In this document: one piece after another, positions 1-61,640 of the stretch
Layout of the letters: each line of letters opens with the position of its first letter
How positions within the stretch are numbered: position 1 is the first letter of the stretch
DNA from: Candidatus Woesearchaeota archaeon
GTDB taxonomy: Archaea; Nanobdellota; Nanobdellia; Woesearchaeales; 21-14-0-10-32-9
Assembly (NCBI GenBank): GCA_020854775.1
Contig: JAHKLZ010000044.1
Location: 6,415 to 70,414, forward strand
Length of the DNA stretch: 64,000 nt
Direction: 5' to 3'
Notes under the pieces: generated by a model
The model's input: the letters and a program-made list of their open reading frames with translations, nothing else
The model's database searches: none
What the model was told of the DNA's origin: nothing
Made by a program: the position numbers and the translations under genes

Positions 1-482
1 TTATTAATCCAACAGGGAAATTCGTCATAGGCGGACCAGTAGGAGATGCTGGATTAACAGGAAGAAAAATAATAGTAGACACATATGGTGGAATGGGGCG
101 ACACGGAGGAGGAGCATTCTCAGGAAAAGATCCTAGCAAAGTAGATAGGAGCGCCGCGTACATGGCTAGATACATAGCGAAAAACTTAGTAGCTTCTGAA
201 CTGTGTGAAAAATGCGAAGTACAAATAAGCTACGCGATTGGTGTAAAAGAACCAACAAGTATTTTAGTAGATACATTTAATACAGGAAAATTAAGTGAAA
301 AACAATTTGATAAATTAGTAAGAAATGTTTTTGATTTAACCCCTCAAGGAATAATAAAAACGCTGGATTTGAAAAAACCAATATATTCAAAAACATCTGT
401 TTATGGACATTTTGGCCGAGATTTTTCTTGGGAAAAAACAGATAAAGCTCAAATATTAAAAGAAAAGGCAAAGGATTTATAA
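1..482 (+). CDS. metK: S-adenosylmethionine synthetase, bacterial/eukaryotic MetK type, 3' part (5' end outside window)
   Basis: Frame 3 is open from pos 3 ([30 protein letters not shown]). It runs into the listed [39 protein letters not shown] and DRSAAY are MetK signature blocks. Stop TAA at 480-482. Confidence 0.9.
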
Positions 483-505: not shown

Positions 506-913
506 ATGAATTATGAAGATATGTTGGGGAAAGCAAGAGAAGTTCTTCCTGAAAAAGTTAATACCACATCTAGATTCGAAGTTCCAAAAGTAAAAGGAAG
601 AATAGAAGGAAATAAAACAGTAATAAGTAATTTTTTTCAAATAGCAGACACGATAGGAAGAAAACCCCAACACTTACTAAAATATGTTTTAAAAGAATTA
701 GCAACACCAGGAAATTTAAAAAATCAAACAGTTGTTTTCGGATCTAAAATACCAGCTACTAAAATAAATGAGAAAATAAGTAGTTATGTTGATGAATTTG
801 TTTTCTGTAAAGAATGTAATGGTCCTGATACTAAAATGGTAAAAGAAGGAGATATATATTACATAAAGTGTCAAGCTTGTGGAGCTCGTCATAGTTTTTA
901 TTCTAAAATATGA
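506..913 (+). CDS. translation initiation factor aIF-2 beta subunit
   Basis: 135 aa. Has the eIF2-beta/eIF5 type core (RFEVPK...GNKTVISNF..IA..L.R.P.HLLKY) and a C-terminal C4 zinc ribbon CKECNGPDT...CQACGA. Confidence 0.85.
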   Translation: MNYEDMLGKAREVLPEKVNTTSRFEVPKVKGRIEGNKTVISNFFQIADTIGRKPQHLLKYVLKELATPGNLKNQTVVFGSKIPATKINEKISSYVDEFVFCKECNGPDTKMVKEGDIYYIKCQACGARHSFYSKI

Positions 914-1005
914 TTTTTAATCAAATAAATTTTTTGATTATGTTTGAAATAATTTTTTTGAAAATTTTAATTTAATAAATATTTATTAAAAAAAAAGCAG
1001 AAGGA

Positions 1006-1029
1006 CTGACCCGTTGATTTCTCATAGAA
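1006..1029 (-). promoter_or_regulatory. ORB-like (origin recognition box-like) element, left copy
   Basis: The minus strand reads TTCTATGAGAAATCAACGGGTCAG. It is 16/24 identical to the right copy and in inverted orientation. It is one of only two G/C-containing islands in the region. Confidence 0.5.
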
Positions 1030-1200
1030 AAAAAATTAAGAAAAAAAGTTTTTATGTTTTGATGATGAATATTTTATTTTAATATTAAAATTAAATTTGT
1101 TTTTGAATATTTTTTATAATAAATATTAATGATATAATATATTAAAATGTTGTATTTAAATTATTATTTTTAAATATTTATGTTTAAATGATATTTTTTT

Positions 1201-1231
1201 ATATTATATTTTTTTATATTATATTTTTTTT
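1201..1231. repeat. tandem 15/16-nt A/T repeat (ATATTATATTTTTTT x2) within the A/T-only region
   Basis: Direct reading: atattatattttttt atattatatttttttt. Similar TATTATATTTATTATTA-type repeats continue to about 1310. Confidence 0.8.
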
Positions 1232-1493
1232 AATTTTGATTTTGTATTAATTAATAATTTTTTGATATTATATTTATTATTATTATTTATATTATATTTA
1301 TTATTATATTAAATGTTATTTATATTTTATATTATAAAAAAAAAATAGATAAAAAAACAAAACAATTATTTTCTATATTGAAATTAATTATGTTGTTATT
1401 AATTTATTATTATATTATATATAATTAAATTATTTTTATTATTATATATATTAAATACAAATTATTAATTATTAATTAAACATTTTCTAAAAA

Positions 1494-1545
1494 TCAAAAA
1501 ATTAAAAATTAAAAATTAAAAAATTGAAATCAAAAAATCAAAACC
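1494..1545. repeat. tandem 7-8 nt A-tract repeat (TYAAAAA(A) x7)
   Basis: tcaaaaaa ttaaaaa ttaaaaa ttaaaaaa ttgaaa tcaaaaaa tcaaaacc, read directly. Confidence 0.8.
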
Positions 1546-1761
1546 AATTCTTATTCAAATAAAAAAATAATTTTAGACGATAAAAAACAAAATTTAATGA
1601 ATAACACATAATTAATTATATTAAATAATTTTTACAATACATTTACAACATTATTTATAAAAAAGTTCAACATAAAATTCAAAAAATCTTCAGAATCAAC
1701 AAAAAATTATTAATAAAAATCAAATAAAAATAAAACAAAAATCATTTTTTTAATAAATAAA

Positions 1762-1785
1762 TTCCATAGGAAATGAAGGGGAGGG
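1762..1785 (+). promoter_or_regulatory. ORB-like element, right copy
   Basis: TTCCATAGGAAATGAAGGGGAGGG. A TTCCA..GGAA dyad is followed by GAAATGAA and a G-string, as in ORB boxes described for Pyrococcus/Sulfolobus origins (recalled from memory). Extra CTTTCCAA half-sites lie at 1793-1800 and 1865-1872. Confidence 0.55.
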
Positions 1786-1880
1786 CTACAACCTTTCCAA
1801 TACATAATAAAATAAACATATCAAATCAATAAAACTCTTCTAAAACAATATTTTACAACAAATACTTTCCAAAAGAAAAA

Positions 1881-1890
1881 TATTTATAAA
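1881..1890 (+). promoter_or_regulatory. TATA box of cdc6 (leaderless mRNA predicted)
   Basis: TATTTATAAA ends 22 nt before the ATG at 1913. There is no Shine-Dalgarno in between. Confidence 0.6.
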
Positions 1891-1912
1891 ACCTCCATTT
1901 CTTCTGGAATTA

Positions 1913-3130
1913 ATGGTACAAAACAATTTAAACAATTTCTTCGAAAAATTCCTAAAAAAAGAAAACTTATTTCAAAACAAAAAAGTATTACAATCAACAT
2001 ATATACCAGGAGAAATAACACACAGAGACGAACAAATCAACATAATAGCAAATATACTAGCACCAGCACTAAAAGGAGAAAAACCATCAAACTTATTCAT
2101 TTACGGAAAAACAGGAACAGGAAAAACACTAGTAGCAAAATACGTAGCAGAACAAATGGAGAATATATCAAAAGAAAAAGGACTACCACTACAAATATTT
2201 TATTTAAACTGCAAATTAAAAAAAATAGCAGACACAGAATACAGAATGATAGCGGAACTATCAAGATTCTTCGGAAAAGCAGTACCAACAACAGGACTAC
2301 CAACAGACGAAGTATACAACATATTCTTTCAAGCACTAGACAGCGAAGAAAAAATAATAATAATAATAATGGATGAAATAGACCAACTAGTAAACAAAGC
2401 AGGCGACGAAATAATATACAATTTAACAAGAATAAACTCAGAACTAAAAAAATCACAACTAAGCATAATAGGAATAAGCAACGACTTAATGTTCGCAAAC
2501 AACTTAGACCCAAGAGTAAAATCATCACTATCAGAAGAAGAAATAGTATTCCCACCATACAACGCATTACAAATACAAGACATACTAAGAAGAAGAACAG
2601 AAATAGCATTCAAAGAAGGAACAATAGAAGAAGGAGTAATACAAAAATGCGCAGCATACGCGGCTAGAGAACACGGAGATGCAAGAAGAGCACTAGAACT
2701 ACTAAGAGTAGCAGGAGAACTAGCAGAAAGAAAAGACAAAACCATAGTAAAAATAGAAGATATAGACGCAGCAGAAGATAAAATAGAAAGAGATAGAATA
2801 ACAGACATGGTAAAAAAACACCCAAAACAATTCCAAGCAACACTATACTCAATACTATCACTAGGAACAGACAAAAAATCAGAAATCCTAACAGGAGACG
2901 TATACGAATTATACAAAGAATTATGCAACAAAATAGGACTAAGACCACTAACACAAAGAAGAGTATCAGACATACTAGCAGAATTAGATATGCTAGGAAT
3001 AATAAATAGCAAAGTAATAAGTAAAGGACGCTTCGGAAGAACAAGAGAAATAACACTATCACTACCAAAAACAATAGAGAAAAAAGTATTATTAATATTA
3101 GAAGAAGAATTAGACATAAAAACAAATTAA
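1913..3130 (+). CDS. cdc6: Orc1/Cdc6 replication initiator
   Basis: 405 aa. AAA+ Walker A GKTGTGKT, Walker B IIIIMDEID, and a C-terminal winged-helix region (RRVSDILAELDMLGII). Confidence 0.95.
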   Translation: MVQNNLNNFFEKFLKKENLFQNKKVLQSTYIPGEITHRDEQINIIANILAPALKGEKPSNLFIYGKTGTGKTLVAKYVAEQMENISKEKGLPLQIFYLNCKLKKIADTEYRMIAELSRFFGKAVPTTGLPTDEVYNIFFQALDSEEKIIIIIMDEIDQLVNKAGDEIIYNLTRINSELKKSQLSIIGISNDLMFANNLDPRVKSSLSEEEIVFPPYNALQIQDILRRRTEIAFKEGTIEEGVIQKCAAYAAREHGDARRALELLRVAGELAERKDKTIVKIEDIDAAEDKIERDRITDMVKKHPKQFQATLYSILSLGTDKKSEILTGDVYELYKELCNKIGLRPLTQRRVSDILAELDMLGIINSKVISKGRFGRTREITLSLPKTIEKKVLLILEEELDIKTN

Positions 3131-3160
3131 CCAATTTTTTTATAAAAAACATGATAAAAA

Positions 3161-4666
3161 ATGAAAGAATCAACAATAAATTTTCTAAACGAAAAACAAA
3201 TACTAGTAAGCCCAGACATATTAGATAAAAATTATGATGAAGAATTCATAAAAAAAATAATAGAAACAAAAAAACCAGAATTCTTAGATGAAGAAACAAT
3301 ACAAAAATACATAGAAGAAAACAAAAATAAAAACAATACAAAAGTAAACATAATAAAATCATATGATAAAGAACCAAAAAAAAGAACATTCCAAGACTTC
3401 GTATCAGTATTCAACAACAGATTCAAAAAATTATCAGAATTACTAAAAAACAGAAAAGAACTAGATAGCACAACATCAATATCAAGATTAAACACAAAAA
3501 ACCAAAATGATAAAACAGCAATAATAGGAATGATTCTAGATAAACAACTAACAAAAAACAACAACATAATATTAACACTAGAAGACACAACAGGAACCTG
3601 CAACGCAATAATAAGAAAAACAGATGATGAAAAAGAAATATATGAAACAGCAGAAAACATAGTTCTAGACGAAGTAATAGGAATAACAGGAACATACCTA
3701 AACAAAGCAATATTCGTAGATAAAATAATATTTCCAGATATACCACTCAATAAAGAATTAAAAAAACAAAAAGAAGAAGAATACGCAATAATGATAGGCG
3801 ACACACATTTCGGATCAAACCACTTCATGAAAGAAGATTTTGAAAGATTCATAAAATGGATAAATCAAGAACTAGGAAACGAAGAACAAAAAAAAATAGC
3901 ATCAAAAGTAAAATACGCAATACTAACAGGAGACATAGTAGAAGGAGTAGGAATATACCCTAATCAAGAAAAAGATTTAGATATACTAAACATAGTAGAA
4001 CAATACGAAGAAGCAGCACGTTGGTTAAAAAAAATACCAGAACACATACAAATAATAACACAATCAGGAAATCACGACGCAGGAAGATTATCAGAACCAC
4101 AAGAAGCACCATTTAAAGACATGGCAAAACCATTATGGGACTTACCAAACATAACACTAGTATCAAATCCAGCATACGTAAACATAGGAAAAACAGAAAC
4201 ATTTCCAGGATTTGATTTATTATTATACCATGGAGGATCACTCATATATTACGCAGATAACATACCAAAAATAAGAGCGGCAGGAGGACAAAAAAAATCA
4301 GATCAAATAATGAAACACTTATTACAAAAAAGACACCTAGCACCAACACATAAATCAACACTATACTTACCAGACGCAGAAGAAGACTTTTTACTAATAG
4401 ATATAGTTCCCGATTTCTTCATAACAGGACACATTCACAGATCAAACATATCAAGCTACAGAAACATAACAATAATAAACGCTTCATGCTGGACAGAAAC
4501 AACAGAAGACCAAATAAAAAGAGGACTAGAACCACTACCAGCAAGAATACCAATAGTGAACTTGAAAACAAGAGATGTAAAAATAATAAATTTTTTATCA
4601 AAAAAATCAAAAGAAAAAGAAAAAGAAGTAACAAAAGAAGTAGAAGAACTAAAAAAATTAAACTAA
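3161..4666 (+). CDS. polB: DNA polymerase D (Pol II) small subunit DP1
   Basis: 501 aa. Calcineurin-like phosphoesterase motifs GDTHFGS, LTGDIVEG, GNHD, GHIH. Its stop lies 1 nt before the polC ATG. Confidence 0.9.
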   Translation: MKESTINFLNEKQILVSPDILDKNYDEEFIKKIIETKKPEFLDEETIQKYIEENKNKNNTKVNIIKSYDKEPKKRTFQDFVSVFNNRFKKLSELLKNRKELDSTTSISRLNTKNQNDKTAIIGMILDKQLTKNNNIILTLEDTTGTCNAIIRKTDDEKEIYETAENIVLDEVIGITGTYLNKAIFVDKIIFPDIPLNKELKKQKEEEYAIMIGDTHFGSNHFMKEDFERFIKWINQELGNEEQKKIASKVKYAILTGDIVEGVGIYPNQEKDLDILNIVEQYEEAARWLKKIPEHIQIITQSGNHDAGRLSEPQEAPFKDMAKPLWDLPNITLVSNPAYVNIGKTETFPGFDLLLYHGGSLIYYADNIPKIRAAGGQKKSDQIMKHLLQKRHLAPTHKSTLYLPDAEEDFLLIDIVPDFFITGHIHRSNISSYRNITIINASCWTETTEDQIKRGLEPLPARIPIVNLKTRDVKIINFLSKKSKEKEKEVTKEVEELKKLN

Positions 4667-4667
4667 A

Positions 4668-7600
4668 ATGATAGCCTCAGAAAAAACCAAGAAATACTTT
4701 GATTCACTAAAAAAAGAATCATTAAAACAATTTCAAATAGCTACGCAAGCAAGAAAAAAAGGCTACGACCCAAAAGAATTCGTAGAAATAAAAATAGCAG
4801 AAAACCTAGCAGAAAGAGTAATAGGACTAATATCAGCAGTAGCACCACAAATAGCAGATACTGACGCGATAAAAAGAATAATAGAACTAGAAGAACAATA
4901 CCAACCACTAGATTGGAGAGTAGCACTAAAAATAGCACATGAAATAAGTGAAGAAAAATTTTGCACGTTTAAAGACAAAAAAGAAGCAATAGAAATAGGA
5001 ATAAGAACAGGATTTGCATACGTAACACTAGGAGTAGTATCTGCGCCACTAGAAGGATTCACATCATTAGAAATAAAAAACAGAAAAGACGGAAAAGAAT
5101 ACTTTTGCTTAAATTACGCAGGACCAATAAGAGCAGCAGGAGGAACAGCAGCAGCAGTATCAGTAATAATCGCGGACTACGTAAGAAAAAAATTAGGATA
5201 CGCAGTTTATGATCCAACAGAAAAAGAAGTTCAAAGATGCCACGCAGAATTAGAAGATTATCACGAATACATAACTAATTTACAATATTTTCCATCAAAA
5301 GAAGAATCAGAATTCTTACTAAAAAATTTACCAGTAGAAATATCAGGAGACCCATCAGAAAAATATGAAATATCAAGCGCTTTACTAAAAGATTTACCAA
5401 GAATACCAACCAACAAATTAAGAAGTGGATATTGCTTAATACACAGTTCTTGCATTCCACTAAAAGGACCAAAACTTTGGGCAAAAATAAAAAAATGGAA
5501 AGAAGAAATGAACATGGAACACTGGGAATTCATGGAAGAATTCTTAAAAATACAAACAAAAACAAAATCAAAATCAACAAAAAAAACAACAACAAATACA
5601 GGATTAACACCGGATTACACATACATATCAGACTTAGTAGGAGGAAGACCAGTACTAGGACACCCTCTTAGAAATGGAGGATTCAGACTAAGATATGGAC
5701 GCTCAAGAATATCAGGATTCTCAGGACAATCAATACACCCCGCAACAATGATATTATCAAACAACTTCGTAGCAACAGGAACACAACTAAAAGTAGAAAG
5801 ACCAGGAAAAGCAGCAGCGTTTACACCTTGTGACACAATAGAAGGACCAATAATAAAAACAGTTAATGGTGACGTAATAAAAATAAGAACAGAAAACGAA
5901 GCAAAACAACATAAAAAAGAAACACAAGAAATATTATACTTAGGAGATGTATTAATAAATTACGGAGACTTCTTTGACAGAGCACACAAATTAGTACCAG
6001 CAGGTTATTGCGAAGAAATATGGATACAAGAACTAGAAAAAGAAATAAAAAATCATAACGTAGAAGAATTAATCAAAAAATTAAACATAGAAAAAGAAGA
6101 ATTTGAACAATTATTCAAAAACCCATTAAAGAAAAAACCAACACTGAAACAAGCATTAACAATATCCAAAATAACAAACATACCATTACACCCAGAATAC
6201 TTATATTATTGGGAATCAATAAAAAAAGAAGAACTAACAGAACTAATAGCTTGGTTTAAAAAAGCAAGAAGAGATGAAAACAGAATAATTCTAAGAAAAA
6301 ACCAAGCAAAAAGACACCTAGAAATAATAGGCGTACCACATCAATTCATAAAAAACGAATTCGTAGTAATACAAAATGAAGACGCGGAACTACTAAACAT
6401 TTTTTTAACACACAAAGAACCAGAAGAAGAACTAAAAAAAGAATTAGAACAATCAAAAACAATAACAGATTTCTTAACAAAAAAAACAAACATACAACTA
6501 AGAGATAAATGCGGAACATTCATAGGAGCAAGAATGGGAAGACCAGAAAAAGCAAAAATGAGAAAACTAACAGGTAGTCCACACGCATTATTCCCAGTAG
6601 GAGATCAAGGAGGAAGACTAAGAAGTTTTCAATCAGCACTAGAATCAGGAACAATAATAGCGGACGTAGAAATGAGACACTGCCAAAAATGTAACAAAAA
6701 CACACCACTAAAAATATGTGAAACTTGCGAAGAAAAAACCCAAGACATAGAAAAAGAAGAAGAAAACAAATACTCAAGCAGAAAAGTAAAAATAGATATA
6801 AAAACAATATTCGAAGAACTAAAAAAGAAACTAGGAACAAACATAATACCTGATTTAATAAAAGGAGTAAGAGGATTAGCAAACAAAGAACACGTACCAG
6901 AACACTTAATAAAAGGAATACTAAGAGCAAAACATAACTTATCAGTAAACAAAGACGGCACAGTAAGATACGATTGTTCAGAACTACCAATAACACATTT
7001 CAAACCATTAGAAATAGGAACAAGCATACAAAAATTAAAAGAATTAGGATATGATTTAGACATAAATGGAGAACCAATACAAAAAGAAGACCAAATAATA
7101 GAACTAAAAGTACAAGACATATTATTACCTTGTTGCCCAGATTCACCAGAAGAACCAGCAGATGAAATACTGTATAGAACAACAAAATTCGTAGATGAAA
7201 CATTACAAAAATTATACGGACAAGAATCATTTTACAACTTAGAAAAAAAAGAAGACTTAATAGGACACCTAACAATAGGATTAGCACCACACACATCAGC
7301 AGGAATAGTAACAAGAATAATAGGTTTCTCAAAAACACAAGGATTTCTAGCACACCCATACGTACACGCAGCGATGAGAAGAGACTGCGACGGAGACGAA
7401 TCATGCATACTACTATTATTAGACGCGTTCCTAAACTTCTCAAAACTATACTTACCAAGCTCAAGAGGAAGCACAATGGATGCGCCACTAGTACTAACAT
7501 CAGTAATACTACCCGCGGAAGTAGATGACATGGTATTCAACATGGACATAACAAACAAGTATCCTCTAGAATTATACGAAGCAGCGAATAATCTAAAAAT

Positions 7601-8186
7601 GCCATTCGACGTAAAAATAAAAAAAGTATCAGACGTAATGGGAACAAACGAACAATACGAAGGATTCATGTTTACTCACGAAACAACAAACCTAAACGCA
7701 GGAGTATTATGCTCAGCATACAAATTATTACCTAGCATGCAAGAAAAAGTACAACAACAAATGGACATAGCAGAAAAAATCAGAGCGGTAGACGTATCAG
7801 ACGTAGCCAGACTAGTAATAGAAAAACACTTCATACGCGACACAAAAGGAAACCTAAGAAAATTCTCAACACAAGAATTCAGATGTGTGAATTGCAACGA
7901 AAAATACAGAAGACCCCCCCTAACAGGGAAATGCACACAATGCGCAGGAAAAATAATATTCACAATAAGTCAAGGAAGCATAATAAAATACTTAGAACTA
8001 AGCATGATGCTAGGAGAAAAATACCAAGTTAGTCCATACATAAAACAAACACTAGAACTAACAAAAAGAAGAATAGAAGGAGTATTCGGAAAAGAAAAAG
8101 AAAAACAAACAGGACTAGGAGACTGGATAACACAACAAGAAGAAATCAAAGAAGAAACAGACGAAGAACTAGAAGCACTATTCTAA
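4668..8186 (+). CDS. polC: DNA polymerase D (Pol II) large subunit DP2
   Basis: 1172 aa. Conserved DP2 blocks NYAGPIRAAGGTAAA, HPATMILSNNFVATGTQLKVERPGKAA, LAPHTSAGIV, MRRDCDGDE. Cys4 modules CQKCNK..CETC and CVNCNEKY..CTQC. No intein-sized insertion. Confidence 0.95.
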   Translation: MIASEKTKKYFDSLKKESLKQFQIATQARKKGYDPKEFVEIKIAENLAERVIGLISAVAPQIADTDAIKRIIELEEQYQPLDWRVALKIAHEISEEKFCTFKDKKEAIEIGIRTGFAYVTLGVVSAPLEGFTSLEIKNRKDGKEYFCLNYAGPIRAAGGTAAAVSVIIADYVRKKLGYAVYDPTEKEVQRCHAELEDYHEYITNLQYFPSKEESEFLLKNLPVEISGDPSEKYEISSALLKDLPRIPTNKLRSGYCLIHSSCIPLKGPKLWAKIKKWKEEMNMEHWEFMEEFLKIQTKTKSKSTKKTTTNTGLTPDYTYISDLVGGRPVLGHPLRNGGFRLRYGRSRISGFSGQSIHPATMILSNNFVATGTQLKVERPGKAAAFTPCDTIEGPIIKTVNGDVIKIRTENEAKQHKKETQEILYLGDVLINYGDFFDRAHKLVPAGYCEEIWIQELEKEIKNHNVEELIKKLNIEKEEFEQLFKNPLKKKPTLKQALTISKITNIPLHPEYLYYWESIKKEELTELIAWFKKARRDENRIILRKNQAKRHLEIIGVPHQFIKNEFVVIQNEDAELLNIFLTHKEPEEELKKELEQSKTITDFLTKKTNIQLRDKCGTFIGARMGRPEKAKMRKLTGSPHALFPVGDQGGRLRSFQSALESGTIIADVEMRHCQKCNKNTPLKICETCEEKTQDIEKEEENKYSSRKVKIDIKTIFEELKKKLGTNIIPDLIKGVRGLANKEHVPEHLIKGILRAKHNLSVNKDGTVRYDCSELPITHFKPLEIGTSIQKLKELGYDLDINGEPIQKEDQIIELKVQDILLPCCPDSPEEPADEILYRTTKFVDETLQKLYGQESFYNLEKKEDLIGHLTIGLAPHTSAGIVTRIIGFSKTQGFLAHPYVHAAMRRDCDGDESCILLLLDAFLNFSKLYLPSSRGSTMDAPLVLTSVILPAEVDDMVFNMDITNKYPLELYEAANNLKMPFDVKIKKVSDVMGTNEQYEGFMFTHETTNLNAGVLCSAYKLLPSMQEKVQQQMDIAEKIRAVDVSDVARLVIEKHFIRDTKGNLRKFSTQEFRCVNCNEKYRRPPLTGKCTQCAGKIIFTISQGSIIKYLELSMMLGEKYQVSPYIKQTLELTKRRIEGVFGKEKEKQTGLGDWITQQEEIKEETDEELEALF

Positions 8187-8189
8187 AAA

Positions 8190-9869
8190 CTAAACAATTC
8201 TTTCCTCAATAATTTTACTAACCAAATCAATATTTAACTCAAACAAAGAAACACCATGCTCCAAATCATAATACCTAAGAACATCAAGAGAAACCTCACC
8301 TATAAAACCAACACATAACCACTTATCATTATGCTTAACCTTTACTTCAGCACTCCTACCACTAATAAAAAAATTAAAAGACTTAGCCTCAAATTTCAAA
8401 TCCAAATCAAATAAAGAACCCAACAACTCCAAACGTTGCTTAGCCCAAGTATAACTAGCACTATCAGAACAAATCGCAACACACAAATCATTATTTTCCT
8501 CAACAACACCCTTAACTTTTCTAAAAACCCTACCAACCTCAAATAATCTCTGAGGATACTCATTCATCTTATTACTTTTAAAAGTCTTCAAAACACTAGG
8601 AACTAAGAATTCACGAAGAGAATCAAACTCAGAAGACGTAGGATTCTTAATACTTAAAACATTATTAAAACCTAAAAATTTTTGATCATCAAATTTAACC
8701 AAAGAATAACTAACAACTTCAACTAAACCATCACCAACAAGAACATCTCTAACTTTATCCTGAACCTTTTCTTTAAAAATCTCTTTACCAACAGAAAAAG
8801 AACCACTCATAACACCTTCAACTTTATCAAAACCATAAGCAATACAAACATCTTCAACGACATCAACAGGATGAATAACATCAGCCCTATAACAAGGAAC
8901 CAAAACATCAACAAACTTACCAGACTTATTCTTAATACCAAAACCCATCTTTTCAACCAAACCAATAAGAACATCATCTTTAAGATCCAAACCAAGATAT
9001 TTCCTAAGATAATCAAACTCAACCCTTAAAACATCAGGACTAAAATCAGGAGTAACCCTAACAACACCCTCTTTTTTATAATTAATATTAACCTCAAAAA
9101 TATCCCCCCCCATATCAGCAAGAGCACAACCAATAATGTTCAAAGCCTTACTAACAACACCAAAATCATGACCAGAACACTCAACAAAAACATGCCTAGT
9201 ATCAACACCGACAGTACCAGTATTCCTAGAATTAAGAATAGGAGGAACACTCATAACACTATCATTAGAATCAGTAAATAAAGGAAAAACTTTTTCATCC
9301 CTTAATAAATGAGCATACTCCTTACCAGCCTTAGTACTCTTAAGCAAATCAAAACCATTCATCTCCTTAGTCTCACCCAAAGGAACAAACCTAATTTTAT
9401 CAGGACTCAAAGCCTTATAATGAATAGGAAAAACAATATTCTCAAAAGGATAAACACCAATCGCGCACTTCTTCCTGTTTCTACCAAAAGTAACATGAAG
9501 CTTCTCTTGAAGATTAATAATATTATTAAGAACAGACTCATCAATACTAAGATTCTTAGCAACCAAACAAGCAGTAAAAGGCCTAACACCCGAAACAGAT
9601 TTATCCACAACAACCTCAAAATCACTTTTATTCACAACATAAGACTTAAGACCCTTAGAAAAACCAAGAAAAGTCTTCAAAGCCCTAGCAAAACCCTCCT
9701 CAGATAACAAATCAGGCCTATTAGGAAAAATCTCAACAACAATATCTTTCTTATTAACTTCTTCCAAATCAGTACCAAGATAACTAATGTGCTTACTCAA
9801 AGAAACATCATCAACTTTCCTACCAAGAATATTTAATACACGATCCTTACTAAAAACAACACTAGGCAT
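8190..9869 (-). CDS. pheT: phenylalanyl-tRNA synthetase beta subunit (archaeal type)
   Basis: 559 aa. The N-terminal block ...FPNRPDLLSEEGFARAL is typical of archaeal PheRS beta. Lies in an operon with pheS. Confidence 0.85.
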   Translation of the reverse strand: MPSVVFSKDRVLNILGRKVDDVSLSKHISYLGTDLEEVNKKDIVVEIFPNRPDLLSEEGFARALKTFLGFSKGLKSYVVNKSDFEVVVDKSVSGVRPFTACLVAKNLSIDESVLNNIINLQEKLHVTFGRNRKKCAIGVYPFENIVFPIHYKALSPDKIRFVPLGETKEMNGFDLLKSTKAGKEYAHLLRDEKVFPLFTDSNDSVMSVPPILNSRNTGTVGVDTRHVFVECSGHDFGVVSKALNIIGCALADMGGDIFEVNINYKKEGVVRVTPDFSPDVLRVEFDYLRKYLGLDLKDDVLIGLVEKMGFGIKNKSGKFVDVLVPCYRADVIHPVDVVEDVCIAYGFDKVEGVMSGSFSVGKEIFKEKVQDKVRDVLVGDGLVEVVSYSLVKFDDQKFLGFNNVLSIKNPTSSEFDSLREFLVPSVLKTFKSNKMNEYPQRLFEVGRVFRKVKGVVEENNDLCVAICSDSASYTWAKQRLELLGSLFDLDLKFEAKSFNFFISGRSAEVKVKHNDKWLCVGFIGEVSLDVLRYYDLEHGVSLFELNIDLVSKIIEERIV

Positions 9870-38001: not shown

Positions 38002-38769
38002 TCACTCCGCAGAAACCAATCCTTTTTTTAATTTAGCCAAACAAATAGTAATATCCTCAAAATGAGCTTCCTGCTCTAAATCAATTCTGCGCTGAGTATC
38101 CAAATATAAAAGAGGAATAAAAGTATAAATCTTCTCTTCTTTATCCTCTGATTTTAATAATTGAGAAAATTGAACGTGCTTAACAGTTTCTAAAGTTTTC
38201 TGAATCTTCTTATACAAATCATTAATTACAACAGTCATATCTTTATCTTTCTTAGGAACCTTAACTTTTTTAGCAACATTACTTAACTTTCTTATATGGC
38301 GTTTCTGATCACCCTCAAGAGCTTTTTCTAAAGCTTCCACTAAGTCATAAACAGAAACTTTTCGTTTCCTAGGTTGAGGAGTCCTATACTTCAAAACAGG
38401 TTTTTCTTTTTGAACAACAACATCAAAAGAAGAATCATCCAAAAAATCCAGAACATCATCGTCTTGAGGAGTAATAAGATTATTTAAAAACACAATGTCT
38501 TCTTTAAGAAGCTTATCAGATTTAATTTTCAAAAAGAAAGCGGCGGCAAGAATAATTTTACCAGATAAACGAAAATCCATTTTCTTCATTTCTTTAAGTA
38601 AAGAAACAAATTTCTCAGCTAAAACAGAAACATCAACATCCCAAGGATCCATTTTTTCAGTCTTAATCAAATCATAAATAATATCTTGCCAAGTAATCTC
38701 GTCTTTATCAAATAACATCTCAAAAATGTCATGTTCCTTATTTCCTGGTGTGACGGGGGCCTCAATCAT
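38002..38769 (-). CDS. scpA: segregation and condensation protein A (ScpA kleisin)
   Basis: 255 aa. The N-terminal block LFDKDEITWQDIIYDLIKTEKMDPWDVDVSVLAEKFVSLLKEMK is typical of ScpA. C-terminal winged helix. Confidence 0.75.
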   Translation of the reverse strand: MIEAPVTPGNKEHDIFEMLFDKDEITWQDIIYDLIKTEKMDPWDVDVSVLAEKFVSLLKEMKKMDFRLSGKIILAAAFFLKIKSDKLLKEDIVFLNNLITPQDDDVLDFLDDSSFDVVVQKEKPVLKYRTPQPRKRKVSVYDLVEALEKALEGDQKRHIRKLSNVAKKVKVPKKDKDMTVVINDLYKKIQKTLETVKHVQFSQLLKSEDKEEKIYTFIPLLYLDTQRRIDLEQEAHFEDITICLAKLKKGLVSAE

Positions 38770-60324: not shown

Positions 60325-61128
60325 TTATTTCTTAACTTTTTGCTCAACCAAATTCCAAGACAAATCAAACAATTGAGTCAAAGTCTTAGAAAAGAAAGGA
60401 GTATTCAACCATATACCTACGTCGTAAGTCGGATGAACGTCATCATCACTAGCCATCATGAACATCATTGAAGAATTATCAACAATACAAAATCTTCCAG
60501 CTAAACCAAGATCTTTAATTTCAGAAATCTTTTTAAGCTCTTCAATATCAGCAGTAGTTTTCTTAATAGGCGCAGAAATTTTTATTTCAACACCTCTATC
60601 TTTTGCTTTTCTGAAATGCTTAAGTAAAAAATCAGCTTTTCTTTTAAGACCTTCTTCACTTGTTACAAGAACAACGCTTTTCTCAGCCTCTTTAATCATC
60701 ATTATTAATTGATTATGTAAATTATCTCTACCCTTCAAAGCACCAGTTATATCACTAGGCTCAACTAATTCAACACCTTTCTCATGAAGCGAAGTCAAAT
60801 CATTAAGAATATCAGTACCTCTTATTTCCTCTAATAACTTCACGTTTCTATCAGCTTCTTCTTTCACGTTCTTTTTAACACGTTCAAGAACTTCTCTAGG
60901 AGGAACAGCAATATACTTAATAGGCTTACCTATTTTCATAACAATAAAACCTTTTTTTTCAAGACTTTCTAAAACATCATAGCTTCTGCTTCTAGGAACA
61001 TTAGAAATATCGGATAATTCACCAGCGGTACTAACACCACGAGAAAGAAGCGCAGTCCAAATCTTCGCTTCATAACTATTAATTCCTAAATCTTTGAGTT
61101 TGTTTAAAAAGTCTTTCTGTACTAACAT
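60325..61128 (-). CDS. TrmB-family transcriptional regulator (paralog 2)
   Basis: 267 aa. Colinear with paralog 1 over its full length. The wHTH block is nearly identical (YEAKIWTALLSRGVSTAGELSDISNVPRSRSYDVLESLEKKGF). Confidence 0.8.
   Translation of the reverse strand: MLVQKDFLNKLKDLGINSYEAKIWTALLSRGVSTAGELSDISNVPRSRSYDVLESLEKKGFIVMKIGKPIKYIAVPPREVLERVKKNVKEEADRNVKLLEEIRGTDILNDLTSLHEKGVELVEPSDITGALKGRDNLHNQLIMMIKEAEKSVVLVTSEEGLKRKADFLLKHFRKAKDRGVEIKISAPIKKTTADIEELKKISEIKDLGLAGRFCIVDNSSMMFMMASDDDVHPTYDVGIWLNTPFFSKTLTQLFDLSWNLVEQKVKK
60897..60930. repeat. 34-nt exact DNA repeat shared with TrmB paralog 1 (copy at 12777-12810)
   Basis: Identical string taggaggaacagcaatatacttaataggcttacc. Confidence 0.9.
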
Positions 61129-61265
61129 TAATAATCACCTTGTAAATTTTTACGCCTTAATAGTGAGTAATACCATCTAATTTATAAAGATTTTGATTTT
61201 GTAACTATTAATAAGTGAAGACAAACACGTTATTTAAAGAAAAAAAAGAAAAAAAGAAAAAAAAA

Positions 61266-61640
61266 CTAACTCCTAGACGCCATATAAATATCAAAAAGAC
61301 CAGGACAAACTTCCTCTACCTTCTCATGAAAAAACTGCTCATACAACTCATTACCAATCAACAACTCATTATAACTCAAAGCCTCCTCACGAGTCAAATC
61401 ATACAATTCATTAATCTCAGAGTAACTTTTATAGTCTGCACTTCTACCAGGATAACCATCAAAACTAGCATAATTATCTTGACAAAAAGTCTCAGCAAAA
61501 AAACCACTCAATCTCCTCAACAAAAGAACTTCCTCAGACTCAACAACTTCAACAACGTCATCATCCTGAACAACGTCTCTAGAAGAACAACCAACCAAGA
61601 ACAAAACAAAAACTAAAATCATAAATAAATAATATCTCAC
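61266..61640 (-). CDS. small secreted/lipoprotein-like protein
   Basis: Signal peptide with a lipobox-like LVGC (MRYYLFMILVFVLFLVGCSS), followed by an acidic domain. The overlapping + strand ORF 61215-61616 is judged an antisense artefact. Confidence 0.55.
   Translation of the reverse strand: MRYYLFMILVFVLFLVGCSSRDVVQDDDVVEVVESEEVLLLRRLSGFFAETFCQDNYASFDGYPGRSADYKSYSEINELYDLTREEALSYNELLIGNELYEQFFHEKVEEVCPGLFDIYMASRS

Follow-up and report, generated by a model that had tools for sequence, protein, structure and literature searches.

An origin-anchored miniature switch of strand composition on a single-polarity chromosome segment of a woesearchaeotal archaeon, with polarity flipping between close relatives

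Strand bias is a standard computational marker of replication origins and is also used to check the assemblies of metagenome-recovered genomes. Myllykallio et al. 2000 reportedly found that in Pyrococcus the cumulative skew changes polarity at the origin for the whole replichore. Codon usage is strand-specific in Borrelia burgdorferi and other spirochaetes, where the bias changes sign at the origin and is far less strong than in the DNA described here. At the fourfold sites of vertebrate mtDNA, one strand is rich in A+C with very little G, and its partner is rich in G+T. Even in bacteria, it is a matter of debate what determines whether replication-linked mutation bias takes one sign or the other. 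In archaea with a single origin, the change of cumulative skew polarity at the origin spans the replichore (PMC3269012). Chromosomes of a single polarity are described for CPR Microgenomates (Ca. Chazhemtobacterium Ch65, Collierbacteria, Beckwithbacteria; PMC7143001). In Ch65 one strand carries C>G around the whole closed genome, which was read either as closeness of origin and terminus or as one-directional theta replication (PMC7143001). A literature search found no paper linking Woesearchaeota with skew analysis.

The stretch analysed here (the window, 64 kb) covers positions 6415-70414 of a 111,766-bp metagenome contig (ENA ERZ27252308 k141_240921) of a DPANN archaeon; related records carry the title Candidatus Woesearchaeota. 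It presents an origin-anchored miniature switch on a chromosome segment of single polarity, and this polarity flips between close relatives. The arrangement resembles Pyrococcus abyssi oriC-cdc6-DP1-DP2 and Saccharolobus oriC1 in that the putative origin lies directly upstream of cdc6, with the PolD genes next. Unlike the situation in Pyrococcus and other single-origin archaea, the change of polarity lasts 0.4-3 kb only. To our knowledge, the strand bias is stronger than in any well-known bacterium. The features of the window are listed in Table 1. Upstream of the spacer lie aIF2-beta, metK, a small gene, TBP and MCM (Pfam assignments). The metK gene (L001:5766-6896 in full) is of the bacterial/eukaryotic type, not the archaeal type.

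Table 1. Features of the window; positions are counted from its first nucleotide, ORB stands for origin-recognition box, and L001 is the contig supplying the left flank.
Feature	Position	Strand	Composition, sequence or domain	Remark
metK, 3' part, bacterial-type S-adenosylmethionine synthetase	3-482	+	Pfam S-AdoMet_synt_N/M/C on the full gene in L001	bias weakened
aIF2-beta, spacer neighbour on the distal side	506-913	+	Pfam eIF-5_eIF-2B	strand bias abolished
Origin-like spacer, no ORF	914-1912		999 bp, 88% A+T; A463 T418 G52 C66	
Distal ORB, degenerate, reverse	1006-1029	-	TTCTATGAGAAATCAACGGGTCAG	7 mismatches to clade consensus TTCCATAGGAAATAAAGGGGTGGG
Distal arm, T-rich, C-free on the + strand	1030-1333		A112 T175 G17 C0	polarity opposite to the rest of the contig
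Central palindrome-like element	1371-1383		TTCTATATTGAAA	site of the switch
Proximal arm, A-rich, C>G on the + strand	1441-1761			polarity same as in the 62 kb to the right
Proximal ORB, forward	1762-1785	+	TTCCATAGGAAATGAAGGGGAGGG	2 mismatches to consensus TTCCATAGGAAATAAAGGGGTGGG
Conserved cdc6 promoter block with TATA box	1867-1893	+	TTCCAAAAGAA..ATATTTATAAAACC	read directly
orc1/cdc6 initiator gene	1913-3130	+	Pfam AAA, Cdc6_lid, WHD_Cdc6	strongest strand bias in the region
PolD small subunit DP1	3161-4666	+	Pfam Metallophos/DNA_pol_E_B	
PolD large subunit DP2	4668-8186	+	Pfam PolC_DP2	
Remaining window	8190-64000		+ strand A+C-rich at silent sites	uniform polarity; genes of both orientations

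Judged by its sequence, the spacer has the anatomy of a classical Orc1/Cdc6-type archaeal origin, and initiation would be expected there. Two inverted ORBs flanking an A/T-rich stretch with very few G or C, a conserved palindrome and the genes cdc6-DP1-DP2 directly downstream allow the spacer to be read in this way, and they support the preliminary description, which had called it a replication origin region. In Orc1/Cdc6 archaeal origins inverted ORBs (TCCA..GGAAA dyad, G-string) likewise flank an A/T-rich stretch, and the layout found here is conserved in the relatives; what sets the present spacer apart is an inter-ORB distance of ~730 bp and a central palindrome in one copy, both unusual. 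A reverse ORB occurs at the same position in 8 of 9 relatives (9 of 10 spacers counting the present genome), and a forward ORB lies 105-150 nt upstream of cdc6 in all 10 genomes; here the gene starts 127 nt past it. The central element was matched as TCTATATAGAA or TCTATATGGAA, the palindrome TCTATAT(A/G)GAA, in 8 relatives, and variant forms are found in the present genome and in L013. The distal arm contains T-tract repeats of the TTTTGATTTT type with a 15-nt period, which are mirrored by repeats of the AAAATCAAAA type in the proximal arm. The promoter block also precedes cdc6 in L007-L013. A hidden RNA gene was considered for the spacer and dropped, as an Rfam search gave no match at E<=1 and no tRNA was found in it. 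In L021 the distal ORB is duplicated (L021:9094-9231), the two reverse copies standing 114 nt from each other on either side of an A-rich repeat; the spacer of this relative also includes a run of N at 9693-9792.

A change of sign of the A/T skew inside the spacer had been claimed from hand counts at 1201-1260 (A18 T40 G2 C0) and 1681-1740 (A41 T12 G1 C6), and both counts were reproduced exactly. The flip is real and exceeds chance by shuffling and by Fisher's test, and G/C flips too. Within the spacer, the cumulative A-T curve is lowest at 1333, and an excursion as large as the observed one was reached by 0 of 20,000 shuffles. The stretch 1334-1761 (A236/T151, G10/C31) differs from the distal arm both in A/T (Fisher p about 1e-8 to 2e-8) and in G/C (Fisher p = 4e-8). 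In 7 of 9 genomes (the present one and 6 of 8 relatives) the cumulative curve has its extremum no more than ~70 nt from the palindrome. The distal arm, defined in relatives as the interval from the reverse box to the palindrome, is opposed to the background polarity in 8 of 10 genomes. Among the seven genomes with an A+C-rich or weak background, A/T skew ranges from -0.10 to -0.44 in the distal arm and from +0.17 to +0.32 in the proximal arm. The sense of this local change fits divergent leading strands that are both A+C-rich.

To the right of the spacer, A exceeds T and C exceeds G at the third positions of all ~70 genes when read on the + strand, irrespective of gene orientation. The earlier statement that the + strand is A-rich with C>G for more than 60 kb rightward thus holds in every gene. 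Read on the + strand, third positions amount to A 68%, C 17%, T 9% and G 5% in the 50 plus-strand genes and to A 62%, C 24%, T 12% and G 3% in the 21 minus-strand genes. As the bias is the same for both gene strands, it belongs to the DNA strand and not to transcription or coding. The third positions of cdc6 comprise A305 C68 T21 G11. The fourfold index, (A+C-G-T)/n at fourfold-degenerate sites and always given on the + strand, equals 0.96 for cdc6, 0.91 for DP1, 0.78 for DP2 and 0.96 for pheT. The per-gene third-position bias is flat across 62 kb, and no sign switch was found by gene third positions in the 64-kb window; the sign is uniform, independent of gene strand, over ~70 kb of the 112-kb contig. 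Clearly weaker bias was noted in a few genes far from the origin, at 38002-38769, 60325-61128 and 61215-61616 (third-position A/T skew 0.27-0.34 versus ~0.75), which are possible recent inversions or acquisitions.

This background could be compared with the described cases of strand asymmetry. As in Borrelia burgdorferi, codon choice follows the DNA strand that carries the gene; here the bias does not reverse at the origin. The asymmetry is comparable in strength to that of vertebrate mtDNA, which replicates by strand displacement. In contrast to mtDNA, there is no bias gradient over 62 kb, the drop is limited to the 2-3 kb before the spacer, and the step in bias across the spacer (see below) is opposite in sense to what a displaced G+T-rich strand would predict. 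Rolling-circle and strand-displacement models were set aside by reasoning alone, since they predict a step of the opposite sense. The Ch65-type chromosomes of CPR bacteria are similar in having C>G on one strand over the visible length, whatever the gene orientation. They differ in having bacterial DnaA/DnaB and no A/T disparity, whereas the present DNA comes from an archaeon with Orc1/MCM/PolD and A versus T is the larger term (~65% vs 10% at silent sites). Furthermore, an origin-like spacer with a short reversed arm and a step is visible here, and sister species have mirrored polarity.

The left flank was followed over 6.4 kb of contig beyond the window with the aid of L001 (5 mismatches across the overlap). 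The fourfold index is 0.00 in aIF2-beta (+ strand gene, n=46) and 0.32 in metK (+), against about 0.8-0.96 in neighbouring genes; further leftward, 2-6 kb from the spacer, it equals 0.71 in hyp113, 0.70 in TBP, 0.86 in MCM and 0.76 in DUF5654, all on the - strand. Thus, the gene next to the spacer has lost its bias, the following one retains half of it, and full strength is regained by ~2.5 kb. Third-position A>T on the + strand persists leftward (metK 0.36, aIF2-beta 0.15), so the T>A ascribed earlier to this side has the wrong sign, metK and aIF2-beta being weakened only. The codon count given for metK at 93-482 (35 T-ending, 13 C-ending) is exact; it does not amount to a reversal, since 67 codons end in A. 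A sustained T>A and G>C on the + strand had been expected to continue leftward, but MCM, TBP and two small genes are A+C-rich as on the right. A second replichore of opposite polarity is absent within 6.4 kb leftward, as it is in nine relatives over the 7-10 kb visible. The change of sign is essentially confined to the spacer, save for a weakened zone of ~2 kb.

Cdc6-anchored loci were collected from 16 related genomes; nine of them had both flanks, with 6-10 kb of the distal side visible. A metagenome scan for Cdc6 relatives yielded five loci, with weak bias in most. No sustained reversal of polarity across the spacer was found in the nine relatives with both flanks over the 7-10 kb visible; it is absent in L008, L009, L013, L015, L020, L021, L023 and L029. 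A step in bias was calculated as the fourfold index on the cdc6 side minus that on the distal side. It equals +0.96 in the present genome, +0.94 in L013, +0.71 in L009, +0.43 in L008, +0.36 in L023, +0.28 in L029, +0.27 in L015, +0.11 in L021 and -0.03 in L020. The step is thus never clearly negative, and the weakened side regains its bias over 1-3 kb. There are exceptions to the pattern: L020 and L021 have almost no step, both arms are T-rich in L008, and L012 and L013 are patchy.

The weakening tracks position beside the spacer, not gene identity. The index of pheT is 0.96 here, where the gene lies 6 kb downstream, versus -0.05 in L009 and -0.31 in L013, two genomes in which it directly adjoins the spacer. 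That of cdc6 is 0.96 here versus -0.35 in L008 (background -0.75), and aIF2-beta and metK have the full bias of -0.52 to -0.70 in L008, L020 and L021. Because aIF2-beta, metK, pheT and cdc6 are all fully biased when off the weak side of the spacer, position and not the gene sets the weakening. Recent recombination from a mirror-type relative was considered as the source of the weak bias of metK and aIF2-beta, and it was rejected, as the amino-acid identity of these genes to L020 is not raised. The block comprising the spacer, cdc6, DP1 and DP2 (window 914-8186) is inverted relative to its flanks between the present genome and L008, L009 and L021. The order here is metK, aIF2-beta / block / pheT, LOG, pheS, and that in the relatives is pheS, LOG, pheT / block / aIF2-beta, metK.

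L020, with 92% Cdc6 identity to the present genome and the same gene order between DUF5654 and DP2, has the mirror-image polarity. The + strand of L020 is rich in G+T to the left and to the right of the spacer (MCM -0.70, TBP -0.68, metK -0.61, cdc6 -0.55, DP1 -0.70), and the arms of the spacer are mirrored, with an A-rich distal arm (+0.26) and a T-rich proximal arm (-0.16). L021 (GCA_964462285.1) is of the G+T type too, with a weaker mirrored pattern. L008 likewise belongs to the G+T type, and L009, L013 and L022 share the A+C type of the present genome. The orientation of the ribosomal-protein operon was tried as an indicator of fork direction and dropped, as its sense strand is A+C-rich or G+T-rich by genome, matching cdc6. 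The ribosomal-protein/SecY operon of L021, located on another contig (L028), has the polarity of the L021 cdc6. The sense strands of cdc6 and the ribosomal operon agree in the present genome and in the pairs L022/L024, L009/L025 and L021/L028, and the sign differs among close relatives. Two loci of the 538-kb contig of one relative (ENA ERZ23510489 NODE_4), which begins in the same spacer, share one sign of bias. Since L020 is mirrored at the same gene order, one mutational rule cannot place the point of divergence at the palindrome in both types. Sister species must therefore differ either in the sign of their mutation rule or in geometry (the roles of the palindrome and the distal box).

Two further differences were seen in these genomes. 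The MCM gene contains an intein with a LAGLIDADG endonuclease in L020 (L020:989-4606, 1205 aa) and in L029 (L029:18879-21227, 1132 aa), and the MCM of the present genome (673 aa) is without an intein. Downstream of DP2 in L020 (L020:15637-20464), HIT, HNH, UvrD-like and hypothetical genes replace pheT-LOG-pheS; this island has almost no strand bias and looks like recently acquired DNA.

The composition of the locus could be explained by a genuine Orc1/Cdc6 origin from which the second fork travels no more than a few kb. Replication would then be effectively one-directional, with a leading strand that is probably A+C-rich here; we hold this explanation at about even confidence. The composition switch at the centre of the spacer would be the point where two forks diverge. 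One fork alone, here the one through cdc6-polD, would go on to copy the chromosome; the opposite fork would usually stop near the distal ORB and leak at most ~2-3 kb beyond, and origin and terminus would lie side by side. One-directional replication would account for a strong strand-bound mutation bias that keeps its sign on both sides, with 0.3-0.4 kb reversed and ~2 kb weakened. Read as a map of fork direction, the profile would consist of an abrupt change at the palindrome, a short stretch of opposite direction reaching to the distal box, a tail fading out over 2-3 kb at most and, farther on, the initial direction. That the silent-site bias reports fork direction, that initiation takes place at the palindrome and which fork survives are points that we infer. 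Provided that replication starts at the palindrome and that the fork through cdc6 is the one that persists, the leading strand being synthesized would be A+C-rich in the present genome, contrary to the bacterial G+T rule; a polarity of this kind, put forward already in the preliminary description, is plausible but unproven. Against one-directional replication, the distal side was covered for 6-10 kb, so that a switch may lie farther away, and we know of no mechanism for stopping the minor fork. The mirrored pattern of L020 and L021, their near lack of a step, the two T-rich arms of L008 and the patchiness of L012 and L013 also count against it. The k-mer depth is ~7 on both sides of the spacer in four sludge metagenomes, and at this low depth no step above ~1.2-fold was seen (left vs right, all low: X1 7.1 vs 6.9-7.0; X2 7.0 vs 5.6-6.9; X3 6.5 vs 6.2-8.0); the two halves were measured separately. 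A more specific version could also be proposed, in which there is one Orc1-type origin, one fork is stopped at the neighbouring ORB, the chromosome is copied one way, and either the surviving fork or the sign of the mutation rule was flipped among sisters. This version is more tentative, and we regard it as possible only. A flip of the mutation rule could involve, for example, a different division of labour between polymerases or a different repair of deaminated bases.

Other explanations have to be weighed against one-directional replication from the palindrome. A local reversal of sign in the middle of a spacer bounded by ORBs is what an ordinary two-directional origin with two long replichores and A+C-rich leading strands, as originally suggested, would produce; since the + strand is A+C-rich again within 0.4-3 kb leftward, here and in all relatives examined over the 6-10 kb visible, this model is barely credible. 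Polarity could also be set by the forks of a distant origin, the locus being carried passively and its cdc6 spacer being weak or dormant, with local marks left by occasional firing. Several origins are frequent in archaea (PMC3269012), polarity relative to cdc6 differs at the same synteny (the present genome vs L020; L009 vs L008 and L021), and L020 and L021 are almost without a step, all of which speaks for passive copying. We nevertheless consider it rather unlikely: a fully reversed distal arm implies leftward forks that dominate and yet stop within 0.4-3 kb, for which chance meeting of forks is insufficient, the reversed arm is always distal to the palindrome, and there is no sign change in ~70 kb here or in the 20-kb loci of relatives.

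It could also be supposed that there is no fork signal at all. The arms would then be a functional unwinding design, with strand-specific T/A tracts for loading of the helicase or initiator, and the weak bias of the neighbours would result from recent small inversions. Both arms are indeed built of short mirrored repeats (TTTTGATTTT vs AAAATCAAAA, 15-nt period), an inversion ending at the spacer did happen, that of the spacer-cdc6-DP1-DP2 block, and bias is patchy in L012 and L013. However, the arms swap composition with the polarity type of the genome (L020 and L021 vs the rest), as neutral DNA would, and the sign of the step is the same in all informative genomes. Moreover, the metK/aIF2-beta order is shared with L020, whose silent sites have fully re-equilibrated since the two diverged, so that an old inversion should have relaxed. 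An explanation by design and inversions is therefore unlikely in our opinion. Application of the bacterial rule, with a G+T-rich leading strand, would have the forks run from right to left, with the palindrome as a barrier or terminus and diffuse initiation 0.4-3 kb distally. The sign pattern alone fits such convergence equally well, and under this rule L020 and L021 fit an origin at the palindrome with the main fork through cdc6. Yet replication would have to start diffusely in genes unrelated to one another (aIF2-beta/metK here; pheT/LOG in L009 and L013; cdc6 in L008), the conserved ORB-flanked element would become a terminus, and the cdc6-polD and ribosomal-protein operons would be transcribed head-on to replication here. 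The bacterial rule is accordingly less likely than an origin at the palindrome, and its chance of being correct is slim.

A textbook-looking origin with a miniature switch means that skew-based origin calls and assembly checks would fail in this clade. Species that share gene order and yet have mirrored polarity could serve to test which factors fix the sign of mutation bias linked to replication. If one-directional replication from the palindrome is correct, the locus would represent natural one-directional replication by eukaryote-like machinery (Orc1, MCM, PolD), with a visible zone in which the second fork stops, and it would be the first one-directionally copied chromosome in a cellular archaeon. 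Each flip of polarity would in that case have converted almost all silent sites of the genome to the mirrored set of codons.

Assemblies in this clade often break at the A/T-only origin: the contigs of six relatives (L007, L011, L012, L016, L022 and L030; one of 538 kb) end in or at the cdc6 spacer. In the distal arm of the origin spacer of L010, a relative with weak bias, a (CTT)n-type microsatellite of ~120 nt was found (L010:9426-9545). Three independent assemblies (L001, L002 and L003) all end in the region L001:1-1400, which lies 5.9-7.3 kb left of the spacer. It contains three plus-strand ORFs, one with a weak Peptidase_S74 match, of low or reversed bias (fourfold index -0.37 and 0.06), and is probably DNA of recent acquisition, or a repeat, at which assemblies break.
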